Notes: a model not told the origin generated them from the letters alone. A stretch of DNA of 58,409 bases from Candidatus Hermodarchaeota archaeon (GCA_048885525.1 JBHLLP010000021.1:1-58409), one strand, 5' to 3'. Counted from the first letter of the stretch, positions 43,434 to 48,560 are shown. Made by a program: numbers and translations.

Positions 43434-43931
43434 TTACATTTCTACTGGAACACGCCATTCTACGCCACACTGACCACAATGGTATTTTTTACCATATAAA
43501 CGTGGATATGATGATATAATATGCGCTCTGTCAATTGTTTCTCGAATAAGGATTTTATTATGATTCCCACATTTAGGGCATTCTCTTCTTGAGACTCCTT
43601 GGAGAATTTCTCTTTTATGCATTTCGAGGGGAGTAACATCTTGAGAAAAAGTTGATTTTGAGCGTACAATTTCTTTTTGTTTTCGAAAAATTTCAATTTT
43701 AGCTTCTTTAATAGGTTCTTCAACTAAAATTACGGGCTCAATTTTCTCCGTTTCAATTATTGGAATGGAGACCTCTTTTTTTATTACTTCTTGGGATTCC
43801 AATACCTGATCTTTATTCTCTAGTTCAGCAATTCTCTGTTTTAGAGCTTCATTCTCTATCATCAATTCTTTAATAAGGTCTTCATAATCCTGAGGAGTAA
43901 AATCTTCTTTTTCTGTCATTTCTTGGCTCAC
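43434..43931 (-). CDS. Coiled-coil protein with C-terminal zinc ribbon
   Basis: CPKCGN...CGQCG; N-terminal heptads. Confidence 0.8.
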   Translation of the reverse strand: MSQEMTEKEDFTPQDYEDLIKELMIENEALKQRIAELENKDQVLESQEVIKKEVSIPIIETEKIEPVILVEEPIKEAKIEIFRKQKEIVRSKSTFSQDVTPLEMHKREILQGVSRRECPKCGNHNKILIRETIDRAHIISSYPRLYGKKYHCGQCGVEWRVPVEM

Positions 43932-44094: not shown

Positions 44095-44931
44095 ATGAAA
44101 CTATATAATATTAGTGATAAAGGGGAATTAATCAAGATAGATAAATTGTCTTTTAAAGAGAATGATGTATATCTTGTTGATGACGAGGTAAAAAATACTA
44201 TTTATATTTGGGTGGGTTTAGAGGTACCCCAAATAAAAAGGGATATTGTTGCAGAAACTGCTAGAAAGATTGATAAGGAACGCGGTGGATCAGCCAAAAT
44301 CTTGATCATGAAACAAAAAAGAGAATACGGTTCATTTTTAGCTATGATGCATGATCTTGAAAGAGGGCTAATACCGGGTAAAACAATTGAAAGAAGGCCA
44401 GAATTTGTATTAAAAGCTCCTCCTGAAAGGATAAAATTTGTTAAACTTGATGGAACTCCTGAAGAGCGAGATCAAACGGTTGAAACAAGGATATTGGAAT
44501 GGCTTCAACAAATTAAGATGCATCGAAGCGATATCCCCGTGGAAAAGCTAAAAGAAGCTACTGAAGCTGTTAAATTCGTTAAGTTTGAATCGACTCCAGC
44601 TAAAGTTGAAGTGAAACCCATGGAACAAAAAAGAGTTGAAATAAAAGAAGAGCTACCGGAAGAACCAGATTTTAAAACACAAATTAGGGAGGCGGCTTAT
44701 TATCTTTCAAAAGATCAATATACTTACGATCAACTCTGCTGGATTTTAGCCGAAAAAATTCAGAAAATAAATCTCGATATGCCCTCTATTGAAGATATTA
44801 GGAGTAAGGCAGAAGAAGTCTTCAATTCTAGTTGTACATATGATGAACTCTGTTGGTTAAATGCAGAGATGGATATCTTGACTAAAAGAAGCTTTCTTGA
44901 ACAGAAAAAGAGAAAGATGTTTGATTATTAA
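44095..44931 (+). CDS. Gelsolin-domain protein with C-terminal duplicated helical domain (1DGelX-like)
   Basis: DVYLVDD...IYIWVG gelsolin core; repeated YDQLCWILAE / YDELCWLNAE. Confidence 0.78.
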   Translation: MKLYNISDKGELIKIDKLSFKENDVYLVDDEVKNTIYIWVGLEVPQIKRDIVAETARKIDKERGGSAKILIMKQKREYGSFLAMMHDLERGLIPGKTIERRPEFVLKAPPERIKFVKLDGTPEERDQTVETRILEWLQQIKMHRSDIPVEKLKEATEAVKFVKFESTPAKVEVKPMEQKRVEIKEELPEEPDFKTQIREAAYYLSKDQYTYDQLCWILAEKIQKINLDMPSIEDIRSKAEEVFNSSCTYDELCWLNAEMDILTKRSFLEQKKRKMFDY

Positions 44932-44970: not shown

Positions 44971-45267
44971 TTATCCACAACAACTATTGTTCTGTGGGTT
45001 TTTCGCTACTGCGCGTGCATTCCATAAGCACCCACAGCCTTTTCGCTCTTGTAATATGATTGCCATAGTTGGACAATTCTTTTTACAAGCAGAACATTCT
45101 GTACAGCGTTCTGGTTCATAGATCTCATACTTTCCTTCATGATTAAGATTTGGTATTCCAAATGGGCATACTTCTCCACATATTCCGCACCCCGTACATA
45201 AATCGGAATTTATCGAGATTTTTGGAATAACAATTGGTATCTTAATTGATGTTGTTTTTAATGTTAT
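44971..45267 (-). CDS. HgcB-like 2x[4Fe-4S] ferredoxin with C-terminal CC; apparent ATA start
   Basis: Manual translation: CTGCGICGEVCP...CTECSACKKNCP...KGCGC...NSCCG*; AGGTGAT RBS 5 nt before ATA, with an in-frame TAA two codons upstream. Confidence 0.85.
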   Translation of the reverse strand: MTLKTTSIKIPIVIPKISINSDLCTGCGICGEVCPFGIPNLNHEGKYEIYEPERCTECSACKKNCPTMAIILQERKGCGCLWNARAVAKNPQNNSCCG

Positions 45268-45337
45268 TTTTTATCACCTTTTTTTCCACTAATTATAGTA
45301 TTTTATTCTCAAATATATTTTGTTTTGTTTTAAAATA

Positions 45338-47011
45338 TTAAAAAAATATAAATCCAATACTTTTAGCTAAAAGTCCAATTATCAATAAAATTAGATTTAT
45401 TTTACTGAAAATGGGATACTCATCTTGAATTTCTCTAGGACTGGTTGCCATGGTATAACCACTAAACGACATCGTTGAGAAAAATGCTAGCCAAAAATAA
45501 AAAATACTACTCAGAAGAATAGATTGCAGCGAGTAGTGAAAAAGCCAAGAAAGCCCACCGAACAATAAAACATTCATAACTCCAAAAATAATACCTTTAC
45601 TGATAAATTTCCGTGTAAAGTTCGTTATGGGGAATAATATCGCGACAAGTGCGTTAGATATAATAATCCAGAGCCAAAGTTCACCTACAATCCACAATCC
45701 TTTTATCCATATAGTATTAATGAAACTTAACCCTAAAAATAGCAAAAATAGGACGATACTTGGCCAAAGAAAGATTTTTCGAAGTAAAAATGTTGTATGC
45801 GTGATTTCTGCTCGAAAACGATGCGATATTGTAAATTTTGCTAATTTCATTTTATCGGGTTTTCGAGCCGGACGTTCTTCTAAGAATTGAGGTAGATATT
45901 TAGCCCATACTGGACCATATAAAATGTTAAAAGGAAAATTTGGGGCCTCAGCTTTTATCAGTGGTGCTGCTATTCCCCCTGCAGAGAGTTGTGGTACAAT
46001 AATTGTCTTTTTATTAGTGATATTTGCTATACCTGAAGCTTCAACTGCCTCTATTAATTGTTTATTTCCAAAATTATTACCTCGTGCAGCACACCAAACA
46101 TTTATACCTCTAGAATCAACACATAATACCCAAGCATCTAATCCTTTAAGAGCACGCATCACTTTAATATAGGTATAAACATAATTAGCAGTTACAATAA
46201 TAGGTGAAGATTCATTGGGATTACCAGATTGATAAATTCCTGGTTCAATTGGTACGTGATCAGTTTGTCCAGTAAATATACAGCGATAAATACTCATTTG
46301 AGCACTAAAACCTTTAAATTTTCTTACTCTAGGTCGATAATATCCAGGGTTATCTAAATCGTGAATTTTTTTTATTTCAATTACTTGAATTGATCCATGT
46401 CGCCATTTCTTTATTGCTGAAATTTCAAACCCAATAGGGGCCAAATAATCAAAAAACCATTTCACTAAAAATGTACTTTCTAGTTTAAGTCTTCTTAATT
46501 TCTTTTTATACCACCTACGTTTAATATTGAACCATAGTTTCCAGAAACCTGAGGGTATAAATTCTGCTGCGATTATCATTCGACCATTAGGTTTCAAAGC
46601 TTTCCATGCATTTCTAAGAAAGATTTGCTGTTCAAAGGGTTTAAGTTCTGAAAGCATAAATGTACTAACTATGAGATCTTTGGAGCCATCCTCAACAGGC
46701 AGATCATTAACGGTACCTATCTGATACAAAAGTTTAATGTCTGATTCAGAGGGATAATTTTTCATAGCAGTGGTTATCATTCTTTGATTTTTATCTATAG
46801 CTATAACATCATTTCCTTTGAGTGCCATTTTTACTGCAAGAATCCCCGTTCCGCAACCTACTTCAAGGATTTTCTCTTGTGTATTAACTCGTTCTAATAT
46901 CCAATCATTTATTTCTTTATTTGCTCCTTTTGTAAGAGCTGTGAATTTTGATTCATATGACTCAGGTTCTAATTCTAGCTTTCGCATGTACACTACAGCG
47001 ATGTCATTCAC
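45338..47011 (-). CDS. SAM-dependent methyltransferase fused to HgcA-like corrinoid-binding and transmembrane domains
   Basis: ILEVGCGTG MTase; PGIY..GNP...SPIIVTANY, GINVWCAARGNNFG, PQLSAGG, YGPV; TM helices ending MSFSGYTMATSPREIQDE. Confidence 0.88.
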   Translation of the reverse strand: MNDIAVVYMRKLELEPESYESKFTALTKGANKEINDWILERVNTQEKILEVGCGTGILAVKMALKGNDVIAIDKNQRMITTAMKNYPSESDIKLLYQIGTVNDLPVEDGSKDLIVSTFMLSELKPFEQQIFLRNAWKALKPNGRMIIAAEFIPSGFWKLWFNIKRRWYKKKLRRLKLESTFLVKWFFDYLAPIGFEISAIKKWRHGSIQVIEIKKIHDLDNPGYYRPRVRKFKGFSAQMSIYRCIFTGQTDHVPIEPGIYQSGNPNESSPIIVTANYVYTYIKVMRALKGLDAWVLCVDSRGINVWCAARGNNFGNKQLIEAVEASGIANITNKKTIIVPQLSAGGIAAPLIKAEAPNFPFNILYGPVWAKYLPQFLEERPARKPDKMKLAKFTISHRFRAEITHTTFLLRKIFLWPSIVLFLLFLGLSFINTIWIKGLWIVGELWLWIIISNALVAILFPITNFTRKFISKGIIFGVMNVLLFGGLSWLFHYSLQSILLSSIFYFWLAFFSTMSFSGYTMATSPREIQDEYPIFSKINLILLIIGLLAKSIGFIFF

Positions 47012-47101
47012 ACCTTTCTTTTGTTATTTTTAATATATAAAATTTAAAAAAAAATATTTATTTTAGTATTTTAAGATATAAATACAATTATAGAGTTGTT
47101 T

Positions 47102-47188
47102 TTAACTACAACAATCTTCACGTGATTGAGTTTCTTCTTTATCCTCTTTTGCTCCTTCGGAACAACAAGCTTCTTCTTTATTTGCCAT
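47102..47188 (-). CDS. 28-aa double vicinal-Cys peptide (MANKEEACCSEGAKEDKEETQSREDCCS)
   Basis: Manual translation; GAGGGA RBS upstream; first ORF after the operator. Confidence 0.7.
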   Translation of the reverse strand: MANKEEACCSEGAKEDKEETQSREDCCS

Positions 47189-47230
47189 TTTTATTCCCTC
47201 TTCATTTTTTAATTAAGAATTGTTAATATT

Positions 47231-47286
47231 TAGTTAGGAAGCTAACTATTTAAATGTTTCGTTCCTTATAATTAACTTCCTAACAA
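47231..47286. promoter_or_regulatory. Two operator-like inverted repeats flanking a TATA-like box
   Basis: TAGTTAG-GAAG-CTAACTA (47231-47248, perfect 7-4-7) and a 15/18 match in reverse orientation at 47269-47286; TTTAAAT at 47249-47255. Confidence 0.7.
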
Positions 47287-47328
47287 ATATCCTATTAAGG
47301 GATTTTATTAAGGTATTAAGGATTCTTA

Positions 47329-47793
47329 CTAAGGAATTAAAGAATTTAGGAGTTTCTGGAGCAATTCGGCTAATTTTTCTATCTCTCCCTTACTGATTTC
47401 AGGACAACATCCATTTACTATTGATTCTAAAGGAGGAGTTTCTATTTTTAATTTTTTTCCTTTGTTTGTGAGTTTAACGAGCATACTTCTTCGATCTTCT
47501 GGGTTTGAGTCACGAAAAACCAAATCTTTCTTTTCCATCGTATCTACAACCCCTGTAATTGTAGATCTTGAACAATTACATGACTCTGCTAAATCTTTAA
47601 ATTGTTGGCCATTAGATCTCCATAATTCTCTTAGAATAAAATGTTGAGTTGGAGTGAGTTCTAGTTCTTGAATGTTATCCCGTTGTAATTTTTCATATTT
47701 TTTATTTAAAATATTAATAAGTTCGAACACTTCAACTATATTTTTAGGGGGACAGCAATTGTTATCTGATTCTGTTGTTTCTTTTTTACTCAT
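47329..47793 (-). CDS. MarR-family regulator with Cys pairs
   Basis: LTPTQHFIL, RSTITGVVDTMEKKDLV.R, DRR, LTNKG; NNCCPP, SCNCS, GCCPE. Confidence 0.9.
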   Translation of the reverse strand: MSKKETTESDNNCCPPKNIVEVFELINILNKKYEKLQRDNIQELELTPTQHFILRELWRSNGQQFKDLAESCNCSRSTITGVVDTMEKKDLVFRDSNPEDRRSMLVKLTNKGKKLKIETPPLESIVNGCCPEISKGEIEKLAELLQKLLNSLIP

Positions 47794-47966
47794 AAGAACA
47801 AATTTTGGTTAGGTTCATAATAATTTGAAATCCTTATTATATTAACAGACTTATAATTTTAAAATCTTTTTAATTCTGGATTTATTTATTAAATTTTTCA
47901 ATTATAAAGGCTAGTTAATTTTAAATACTGCTATTTATTTCTAATACAAAAATTTAACAAAAATTA

Positions 47967-48560
47967 ATGGTAGTTAACATGGAAAATAGTGATGAATTAA
48001 GCGAAGAACAGTTTTGGAAAGGAATAATAAAAGAATATAAGATCCCCTTTTTAATTGTGATAATTGCTTGTATTTGTCTTGCTATTGGCGCACTTCTTGT
48101 TTTGTTTTGGTTTATAAGGATAACACCTCTCGGTAATTATGGGAATGCTTTAATTGGTGAATGGAGAATGCATTGGGTCGTTGGATTTATTATCCTTTTA
48201 ACTTTATTAGAACTTTTATTTATTGGTATTCCAGCAGGATTATTTTTTGGGGTAGGAGGATATTTATGGTGGCGTAATTTACCTCAAGAAAAAAAGCAAG
48301 TGTTCAAAGATAGAGAAAAGAAGAAAACTCATAGAAAACAAGATTATGGTGGCGGGGGTGGATTTAGTTTCTTTATGTTCATAGCATATTGTATCTATCT
48401 TGCTTTTGATGGGCATTACAATGTTCCATTCGGTAGTGAGCCATATACTTATTGGGTATATGCAGGTTTTTATACTTTAATGTGGATCCTAATATATATT
48501 GGCATTCCTGCAGCGATAATTTGTCTTATATTATATTTCGTTAAATGGCGAAAAAAGTAG
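47967..48560 (+). CDS. Hypothetical membrane protein
   Basis: About 4 TM with GGGGG linker. Confidence 0.75.
   Translation: MVVNMENSDELSEEQFWKGIIKEYKIPFLIVIIACICLAIGALLVLFWFIRITPLGNYGNALIGEWRMHWVVGFIILLTLLELLFIGIPAGLFFGVGGYLWWRNLPQEKKQVFKDREKKKTHRKQDYGGGGGFSFFMFIAYCIYLAFDGHYNVPFGSEPYTYWVYAGFYTLMWILIYIGIPAAIICLILYFVKWRKK

Follow-up and report, generated by a model that had tools for sequence, protein, structure and literature searches.

A methyltransferase-bearing relative of HgcAB beside a cysteine-rich MarR regulator and a conserved micro-peptide gene in an Asgard archaeon: a putative corrinoid-dependent methyl-transfer system

The window analyzed here is a 58,409-nt stretch (contig C21, 29% GC; GCA_048885525.1 JBHLLP010000021.1:1-58409) of a Candidatus Hermodarchaeota archaeon, an Asgard genome of 3.58 Mb and 99% completeness whose nearest relatives carry the Promethearchaeota label. 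As a first-pass annotation of the sequence had it, four co-oriented genes lie on the minus strand at 44971-47793: a gene for a MarR-family regulator (47329-47793), a micro-open reading frame (micro-ORF) of 28 aa (47102-47188), a gene for a 557-aa fusion of an S-adenosylmethionine (SAM) methyltransferase with an HgcA-like corrinoid domain and a five-helix transmembrane (TM) domain (45338-47011), and a gene for an HgcB-like 2x[4Fe-4S] ferredoxin (44971-45270). The annotation described them as a regulated HgcAB-like locus with a built-in SAM methyltransferase. That a methyltransferase is built into an HgcAB-type corrinoid/ferredoxin pair is upheld by domain profiles and by invariant SAM-motif residues, and the remaining parts of the description fare differently, as set out below.

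The N-terminal domain of the fusion (aa 1-215; 46367-47011) is a class I SAM methyltransferase, for which NF043040 (CpaM) is the best-matching family at 143.5 bits, below the cut-off of 180; the next-best methyltransferase family follows about 90 bits lower, at 54 bits, and the ArsM profile gives 42 bits against a cut-off of 263. By fold, this part resembles small-molecule class I and phospholipid N-methyltransferases. The corrinoid-binding domain (aa ~235-390; 45842-46309) matches PF03599, as a homologue of HgcA and of the large subunit of the corrinoid iron-sulfur protein (CFeSP), and by sequence it resembles the CFeSP chains 2h9a and 4c1n in the PDB (E ~1e-21; 1e-18 to 1e-21 when 4djd is included). 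In an AlphaFold2 model built with 40 homologues (predicted local distance difference test score, pLDDT, 91.5; predicted template modeling score, pTM, 0.86), five C-terminal TM helices occupy residues 395-556 (45344-45829), and the multi-helix C-terminal membrane domain that characterizes HgcA is thus present in the fusion. The top Foldseek match of this model is the deposited HgcAB model 9a0b_A. The order of methyltransferase, corrinoid, and TM domains therefore stands as annotated, but the annotated cap helix N(V/I)WCA(A/G)GK does not: it reads NVWCAARG (46079-46102), with the cysteine (Cys307) kept and the GK absent. This motif is invariant in 16 Asgard orthologues. Across 40 fusions, down to 23% identity, N304-V305-W306-C307 is unchanged, as are the SAM-motif residues G52, G54, G56, D73, D112, and E122, so the methyltransferase and corrinoid active sites both look functional. 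An exact-sequence look-up of the fusion protein returned no matching record.

Two checks proposed with the annotation, scoring against the HgcA and HgcB hidden Markov models and a tree with canonical and fused HgcA, both place the pair outside HgcA and HgcB proper. The fusion reaches 171.2 bits against NF040863 (HgcA; 172.8 in the genome search; cut-off 275) and 174 bits against NF043039 (HgcAB_like; cut-off 285), and the ferredoxin reaches 55.1 bits against NF040864 (HgcB; cut-off 99). In an unrooted tree of 81 sequences, computed from the corrinoid and TM region with a quick IQ-TREE run and supported by the SH-like approximate likelihood ratio test (SH-aLRT) only, the fusions of Lokiarchaeial (Loki) genomes fall outside the canonical HgcA clade (100%) and form a clade of their own (100%), paired with the Thorarchaeota (Thor) fusions at 92%, and HgcAB_like proteins and triple fusions are grouped at 99%. 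Lin et al. 2023 likewise placed Asgard sequences in a non-canonical 'fused' subtree (PMC10083202). In the same study, the first 327 alignment columns were trimmed as poorly aligned (PMC10083202), and no description of the N-terminal methyltransferase was found there or elsewhere in the searchable literature. A literature search for 'CpaM' together with corrinoid likewise found no paper.

The cap helix divides the family in the same way. A search of 1.84 billion representative proteins was made with the fusion, and the best 150 matches were classified. Nearly all full-length representatives without a methyltransferase carry NVWCAAGK, whereas GK is absent from every methyltransferase-bearing match; the latter read NVWCAARG[NDG].F in Loki, NVWCAARG.HF in Thor, and NVWCAAGGG.F in Chloroflexota and others. 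The methyltransferase-linked branch itself occurs in three architectures, namely the window type, with the methyltransferase joined to the HgcA-like part and the ferredoxin separate; a triple fusion of methyltransferase, HgcA-like part, and 2xFer4 (eight representatives plus loci L035 and L047); and an HgcA-HgcB fusion whose gene directly follows a separate CpaM-like gene, as at 10 of 10 Asgard loci above the NF043039 cut-off. Because the two are coupled in all three, the methyltransferase and the HgcA-like domain are, on this comparative evidence, functionally tied, and by profile and tree the fusion is a member of the methyltransferase-linked 'HgcAB-like/CpaM' radiation, not a canonical HgcA. 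The joint of methyltransferase to HgcA with HgcB as a separate gene is a new split of these parts. Already known are the family (HgcAB-like plus CpaM in NCBIfam), the presence of Asgard sequences in the non-canonical clade, and the association of hgcAB with ars genes; what we could not find described are this joint with a separate HgcB, the systematic ars embedding in Asgard genomes, and the unit of MarR, operator, and CC peptide.

The fusion is widespread in Asgard archaea. More than 120 clusters (90% identity) share at least 62% identity with it, all from Asgard metagenome-assembled genomes (MAGs) or metagenomes and all annotated only as 'methyltransferase domain-containing protein'. A match is present in 139 of 301 Asgard genomes, including 58 of the 68 in the window's family and all 21 in its genus, and the core of fusion and ferredoxin is known also from Thorarchaeota and bacteria. 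A true NF043039-type gene occurs in 59 of the 301 genomes, nine of which belong to the same genus and hold it as a second locus; a profile search of the window's own genome did not find one. In this paralogous system (for example G008:C11:17984-19741, G166:C10, and G211:C23), a CpaM-like methyltransferase gene is followed by an HgcAB_like fusion above the cut-off, and some Asgard copies contain in-frame TGA codons, for which selenocysteine or damage are possible explanations.

At every locus with that flank assembled, the ferredoxin gene lies directly downstream of the fusion. Its frame in the window (99 codons plus stop) ends in SCCG and holds, besides a GCGC, the CxxCxxCxxxCP motif twice, which is the motif pattern of HgcB, and all 42 distinct orthologues examined end in CC or CxC. 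The frame is up to 91% identical to those of relatives and intact apart from its start, where it has no in-frame ATG, GTG, or TTG. This accounts for its absence from the ORF track, one of two absences that had been reported. Relatives read AGGTG GT. AAA ATA ACA... at this point, and GTG is in frame in 13 of the 15 species aligned. The window carries one extra A (GGTGATAAAAAATA), by which the GTG (45275-45277) is put out of frame and runs into TGA and TAA; the extra base may be an assembly error, or the frameshift may be real and inactivating. In the alignment, however, the same 4-nt spacer carries a 1-nt insertion of independent origin at locus L105, and the codon 4-5 nt downstream of a preceding GGTG[AG]T is ATA in 12 of the 15 species, the window included (ATG in L015, ATT in L014, GTA in L101). 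For these reasons we think that translation starts at the candidate non-canonical ATA (45265-45267) and not at GTG. The putative Shine-Dalgarno-like GGTGAT (45273-45278) is complementary to the usual 3' end of 16S rRNA.

Upstream of the enzyme genes, the 154-aa regulator belongs to the MarR family by PF01047 (63.2 bits, cut-off 24.6; E 2e-17). It has the two CC pairs and the CxC attributed to it (C13-C14, C129-C130, and C72xC74); C14, C72, C74, C129, and C130 are invariant in the MarR of 11 species, and C13 is kept in most. A homodimer model scored 0.53 against 0.00 for the best control, with run contact agreement of at least 60% and partner pLDDT of at least 72. Of proteins solved as one-chain pairs, 20 of 30 attain this mark, as against 1 of 23 solved single chains; MarR dimers are textbook knowledge and already solved, so the pass may reflect likeness only. 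The modeled interface, which gives no Cys-Cys distances, includes residue 16 and residues 130-133, and for this reason the N- and C-terminal Cys pairs could meet across subunits.

Between marR and the micro-ORF lies an 18-bp palindrome, TAGTTAGCTTCCTAACTA (47231-47248), directly downstream of a predicted micro-ORF promoter made up of a BRE-like (B recognition element) CGAAAC and a TATA-like TTTAAATA (47247-47261, minus strand). In relatives, the palindrome is conserved as TAGTTAGG..CCTAACTA. The pattern AGTTAGN4CTAACT has its single match in the 3.58-Mb genome at this site, and a reversed control pattern has none. A block in the gap between the two genes reads GTTAGGA..TTAATTATA....CGAAAC.TTTA[TA]ATAGTTAG[G..C]CTAACTA in 11 of 11 MarR-type loci, all of which thus keep the upstream box GTTAGGA..TTAATTATA together with the core CGAAAC.TTTA[TA]ATA, and the intergenic DNA flanking the block is not conserved. 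Locus L012, an ArsR-type relative, lacks the whole block. From this pattern of conservation, the block is read as a putative BRE/TATA promoter between a half-site and the palindrome. Upstream, beyond the BRE/TATA element, lies a degenerate box, GTTAGGAAGTTAATTA (47269-47286), with 3 mismatches to the palindrome. A scan of the window for a second perfect operator before marR or the fusion found none, only 3-mismatch sites no more frequent than chance; of the palindromic operators in the plural that had been proposed, one is genome-unique and conserved in 11 relatives, and a second perfect copy is missing.

The acidic micro-ORF, with a CC near each end, is intact at 13 loci (12 further distinct species), where it encodes 25-38 aa with the layout M..CC[ST]E, a variable acidic middle, and CC before the stop. 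The combination of intact frame, retained Cys pairs, and variable acidic middle argues that the annotated CC...CC peptide is translated. Vicinal Cys pairs, which had been singled out in the annotation, thus recur in regulator, peptide, and ferredoxin tail and are conserved there. After the micro-ORF follows a T9 tract (47046-47054, minus strand), a possible archaeal terminator or attenuator that MarR-clade relatives match with a T7-T10 run in the same place, and between it and the fusion lies a TATA-like TTTTATATAT (47033-47042, minus strand). Because the T-run and the TATA-like element precede the fusion, MarR may mainly control the peptide, with the enzyme genes dependent on read-through or on a promoter of their own. 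The term 'regulated' therefore fits in that a dedicated operator exists, but this operator stands before the peptide, and its reach to the HgcAB-like genes across the T-run would depend on read-through.

An indication of the substrate comes from the neighborhoods of relatives, which were examined at 53 Loki loci. The prevailing order there is a divergent ArsR gene, ACR3, the fusion, the ferredoxin, a thioredoxin-like protein with an N-terminal CC...CC tail, a 117-aa protein, in some cases ArsC, and then YdjM; ArsR is present at most loci, and at about half of all loci a co-oriented ACR3 gene immediately precedes the fusion. The ArsR/SmtB neighbor scores 76.7 bits with NF033788 (cut-off 55) and the ArsM neighbor 347 bits (cut-off 263), while the ACR3 neighbor, at 281 bits against 282.8, and the ArsC-family neighbor, at 130 bits, are below their cut-offs. 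Two conserved genes downstream of the ferredoxin in Loki ars operons (L017, L019, L020, L023, and L115-L135) encode the proteins of ~130 aa and ~117 aa. No Pfam or NCBIfam family was found for either, and the Atlas lead for the ~130-aa protein, which has an N-terminal CC...CC tail, is thioredoxin-like (0.87). Basal ars-embedded ferredoxins (L020, L021, L023, L120, L128, L131, L133-L135, and L138) bear an S/A-CC N-terminal tail and the ArsM of L023 has three N-terminal CC pairs, so CC tails apparently recur among the proteins of Asgard ars loci. The idea that the ferredoxin CC tail and the stand-alone peptide are complementary gave a weak pattern (10 with tail, 12 with peptide, 20 with neither, none with both) and was dropped.

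In the tree of Loki fusions, the ars-embedded loci form a basal grade, and a derived clade (99% local support) comprises L130, where MarR and ArsM accompany the fusion, a few regulator-less loci, and a 12-species group of one genus (99% support) that includes the window. In this group, the pair of fusion and ferredoxin is flanked by a conserved gene for a membrane protein on one side and a gelsolin-like gene on the other, and only here do MarR and the micro-ORF stand ahead of it; L012, a member, has ArsR in place of MarR and keeps the peptide. The four-gene order, whose conservation across Asgard MAGs had been put forward as a check, is thus confined to one derived clade of one genus, and the two-gene core alone is widespread. 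Five loci (L012:5393-6004, L101, L103, L107, and L111) have a gene for an FMN-reductase/iron-sulfur-flavoprotein-like protein (FMN, flavin mononucleotide; PF03358, E 4e-27) between the CC peptide and the fusion, and its product is a candidate for supplying the ferredoxin with electrons. In the window's own genome, ArsR, ACR3, the thioredoxin-like protein, and the 117-aa protein are still encoded at C1:77062-79628, with the ~130-aa and ~117-aa protein genes directly after ACR3 and the pair absent. Since this operon persists without it, the pair appears to have moved out of an ancestral ars operon in the window's lineage.

The linkage extends in part beyond Loki. Thor fusions have a co-oriented ArsR with a CVC motif upstream, and an ArsR-like gene precedes the one Poribacteria fusion locus examined; Anaerolineae fusions have TetR-type neighbors and no ars genes nearby. 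Canonical hgcAB loci have ArsC or ACR3 beside them in four of about 40 cases. It has been reported that ars genes flank canonical hgcAB (PMC7438021) and that an ArsR-like regulator renders hgcAB responsive to arsenic and S-adenosylhomocysteine (10.1101/2022.10.17.512643). The earlier proposal of an unspecified thiophilic-metal substrate can accordingly be sharpened, in that relatives' neighborhoods favor arsenic.

Taken together, these observations are consistent with a membrane-anchored, corrinoid-dependent methyl-transfer machine, related to but distinct from HgcAB, that would act most likely on arsenic species, a reading to which we give about even chances. For the substrate taken by itself, an arsenic species leads the candidates because of the ars genes around the loci of relatives, with close to even confidence or a shade under. 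In purified canonical HgcAB, SAM is the methyl donor via a Cys-ligated methylcobalamin: SAM methylates cob(I)alamin, and the methyl group then passes to Hg(II) (PMC11588087). By analogy, the HgcB-like ferredoxin would bring the Cys307-ligated corrinoid to the reduced Co(I) state, the class I methyltransferase domain of the fusion would load the SAM methyl group onto the cobalt, and the group would pass to a soft metal(loid) held by Cys pairs such as the ferredoxin GCGC and terminal CC. As(III) or a methylarsenical would be the most likely native substrate, with antimony or mercury as possible side substrates. Having left the ancestral ArsR/ACR3 operon, the pair would now stand beside a Cys-rich MarR repressor that may bind the palindrome over the micro-peptide promoter and be released once its inter-subunit cysteines bind metalloid, with the CC...CC micro-peptide as a candidate metalloid buffer or chaperone. 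The sequence comparisons establish the domain architecture with its conserved catalytic and ligand residues, the placement in the family, the linkage of the genes, and the conservation of operator and peptide. Each chemical step, the identity of the substrate and of the MarR ligand, what the peptide does, and the co-transcription of peptide and fusion are what we infer here. A stronger form, in which the pair is a cobalamin-dependent, SAM-fed metalloid methyltransferase distinct from ArsM, metalloid handling is ancestral to the HgcAB superfamily, MarR senses As(III) through an intersubunit Cys site, and the 28-aa peptide is a metallochaperone, we regard as doubtful.

Several points weigh against an arsenic methyl-transfer system under MarR control. 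The window has no ars gene beside the module, and the ars-linked loci are not independent observations because they largely represent one ancestral arrangement inherited by related species. As ArsM is also present in the window's genome, on C34, the module fills no obvious gap. The conserved T-run between peptide and fusion makes control of the enzyme genes by MarR uncertain, and the ferredoxin frame is without a canonical start. Finally, the closest characterized MarR-type profiles include the peroxide sensor OhrR, so the MarR cysteines could sense oxidants rather than metalloids.

This last point leads to the likeliest alternative, which we nonetheless consider improbable: that the substrate is not a metalloid, the system serving in reductive dehalogenation of halomethanes or in methylation of a thiol, a small molecule, or a lipid head group, with MarR as an OhrR-like redox sensor that protects an oxygen-sensitive Fe-S/corrinoid enzyme. 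The resemblance of the methyltransferase fold to small-molecule and phospholipid N-methyltransferases would suit it, as would the Anaerolineae fusions beside TetR-like regulators, and heterologously expressed HgcAB dechlorinates CCl4 (bioRxiv 10.64898/2026.04.26.720869). OhrR (NF052638) is among the best matches of the MarR protein, yet the score of 47.9 bits is far under the cut-off of 200, and although the N- and C-terminal Cys positions presumably recall those of 2-Cys OhrR, CC pairs are atypical of that family. Fusion or constant adjacency of a SAM methyltransferase also favors methyl transfer over dehalogenation as the selected activity, and the ars linkage persists in Loki and Thor and, as an ArsR-like gene, before the one Poribacteria locus.

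A main role in mercury methylation is less likely, and the corresponding view of the pair as a divergent HgcAB orthologue that makes methylmercury, with MarR and peptide sensing and buffering Hg(II), appears to us more improbable than a non-metalloid substrate. Vicinal Cys pairs bind Hg(II) well, and the homology to HgcA and HgcB extends to the cap-helix Cys, the 5-TM domain, the terminal CC of the ferredoxin, and the top structural match. This homology is offset by scores below both the HgcA and the HgcB cut-offs (171 vs 275 and 55 vs 99 bits), by a position outside the fully supported canonical clade, and by the lack of the canonical GK in every methyltransferase-linked form. The neighbors of relatives are ars genes, not mer genes, and a fused HgcAB from Pyrococcus furiosus, of the non-canonical clade, did not methylate Hg, as cited in PMC10083202. 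Least probable of all is decay of the module in the window's genome, with the ferredoxin start lost to the 1-nt insertion, the system inactive, and the micro-ORF a remnant or unrelated: the out-of-frame GTG and the removal of the pair from its ars operon would fit, but the rest of the ferredoxin frame is intact, the L105 insertion fits a start at the downstream ATA/ATG after GGTG[AG]T, the fusion, MarR, peptide, and operator are all intact and conserved, and the A-run may be an assembly error.

In the window, the module is flanked by the genes for the membrane protein and the gelsolin-like protein. The former is a divergent 197-aa protein (TM197; 47967-48560, plus strand) with a GGGGG motif and without a Pfam family, and its gene is the conserved upstream neighbor in all derived-clade members with that flank assembled. 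The latter is a gelsolin-repeat protein (44095-44931, plus strand; PF00626, E 2.9e-6), an Asgard eukaryote-like signature protein with a duplicated C-terminal motif (YTYDQLCW/CTYDELCW), and across the MarR clade its gene keeps synteny with the locus. The minus-strand gene at 43434-43931 encodes a protein of 165 aa whose N-terminus is a coiled coil and whose C-terminus carries a CPxCG...CGxCG zinc-ribbon; this gene adjoins the gelsolin-like gene in L012 and L018 too. Public sequencing runs matching sampled words of the sequence comprise 16 DNA runs, of which four contain 88% or more of these words, and no RNA run is among those listed.

The literature treats the HgcAB family's native function as unsettled (PMC10083202; 10.1101/2022.10.17.512643; 10.64898/2026.04.26.720869), and the present locus bears on it in several ways. 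The fusion is a Rosetta-stone case in which a SAM methyltransferase is integral to a non-canonical branch, which fits the SAM feeding of canonical HgcAB. Embedding in ars operons in one Lokiarchaeial family, together with ArsR before the Thorarchaeota pair, nominates arsenic as a substrate to test, and the Cys-rich MarR, its genome-unique operator, and the conserved micro-peptide make up a compact regulatory unit that is testable in vitro without cultivation. If arsenic methylation were true, a B12-dependent enzyme would be added to the arsenic cycle, and the wide occurrence of hgcAB-like genes in places poor in mercury would become easier to explain. If the pair were indeed a cobalamin-dependent metalloid methyltransferase, metalloid handling, and not mercury methylation, would be the ancestral job of the HgcAB superfamily.

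Each component of the system can be set against a known counterpart. Like OhrR and the As(III)-sensing ArsR proteins with intersubunit S3 sites, the regulator is a winged-helix repressor, dimeric by model, with a palindromic operator over a promoter, and at the modeled dimer interface it has cysteines close to its N-terminal helix and its C-terminal helices; unlike them, it has vicinal CC pairs and a CxC in the DNA-binding helix region, and it falls far under the OhrR cut-off. With the Wood-Ljungdahl CFeSP (AcsC/CdhE plus MeTr), the fusion shares a homologous corrinoid domain and, putatively, a methyl relay via Co(I)/CH3-Co(III). The donor domain differs, being a class I SAM methyltransferase and not a methyl-tetrahydrofolate TIM-barrel MeTr, and the window's system has a Cys as predicted lower cobalt ligand, a membrane domain, and no nearby CODH/ACS genes. 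ArsM and the ars operons share with it the use of SAM and Cys pairs as likely metalloid ligands; relatives have the pair between ACR3 and ArsC under ArsR, and in L023 it adjoins ArsM. The methyltransferase domain is nevertheless not ArsM, a corrinoid and a ferredoxin are interposed, and a corrinoid/ferredoxin pair as an ars-operon component was not found in the searchable literature.

The two closest systems are both relatives in sequence. HgcA and HgcB of Pseudodesulfovibrio mercurii ND132 have the same Cys-bearing cap helix in a corrinoid domain followed by a 5-TM domain, and the partner is likewise a 2x[4Fe-4S] ferredoxin with an extra Cys and a C-terminal Cys pair; a recurrent ars/ArsR association (PMC7438021; 10.1101/2022.10.17.512643) and SAM as methyl source (PMC11588087) are further parallels. 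The window differs in its N-terminal methyltransferase domain, in AARG instead of AAGK, in scores under both family cut-offs and a separate clade, and in having MarR and a micro-peptide instead of ArsR. The Pyrococcus-type HgcAB_like and CpaM (NF043039/NF043040) come nearer: CpaM is by far the best match of the methyltransferase, the HgcA-like part lacks GK, and a methyltransferase is always linked to the corrinoid protein. The window's proteins score under both of these cut-offs as well, and their parts are divided in another way, in that the NCBIfam type has a separate methyltransferase and a fused HgcA-HgcB, whereas here the methyltransferase is joined to HgcA and HgcB stands on its own.

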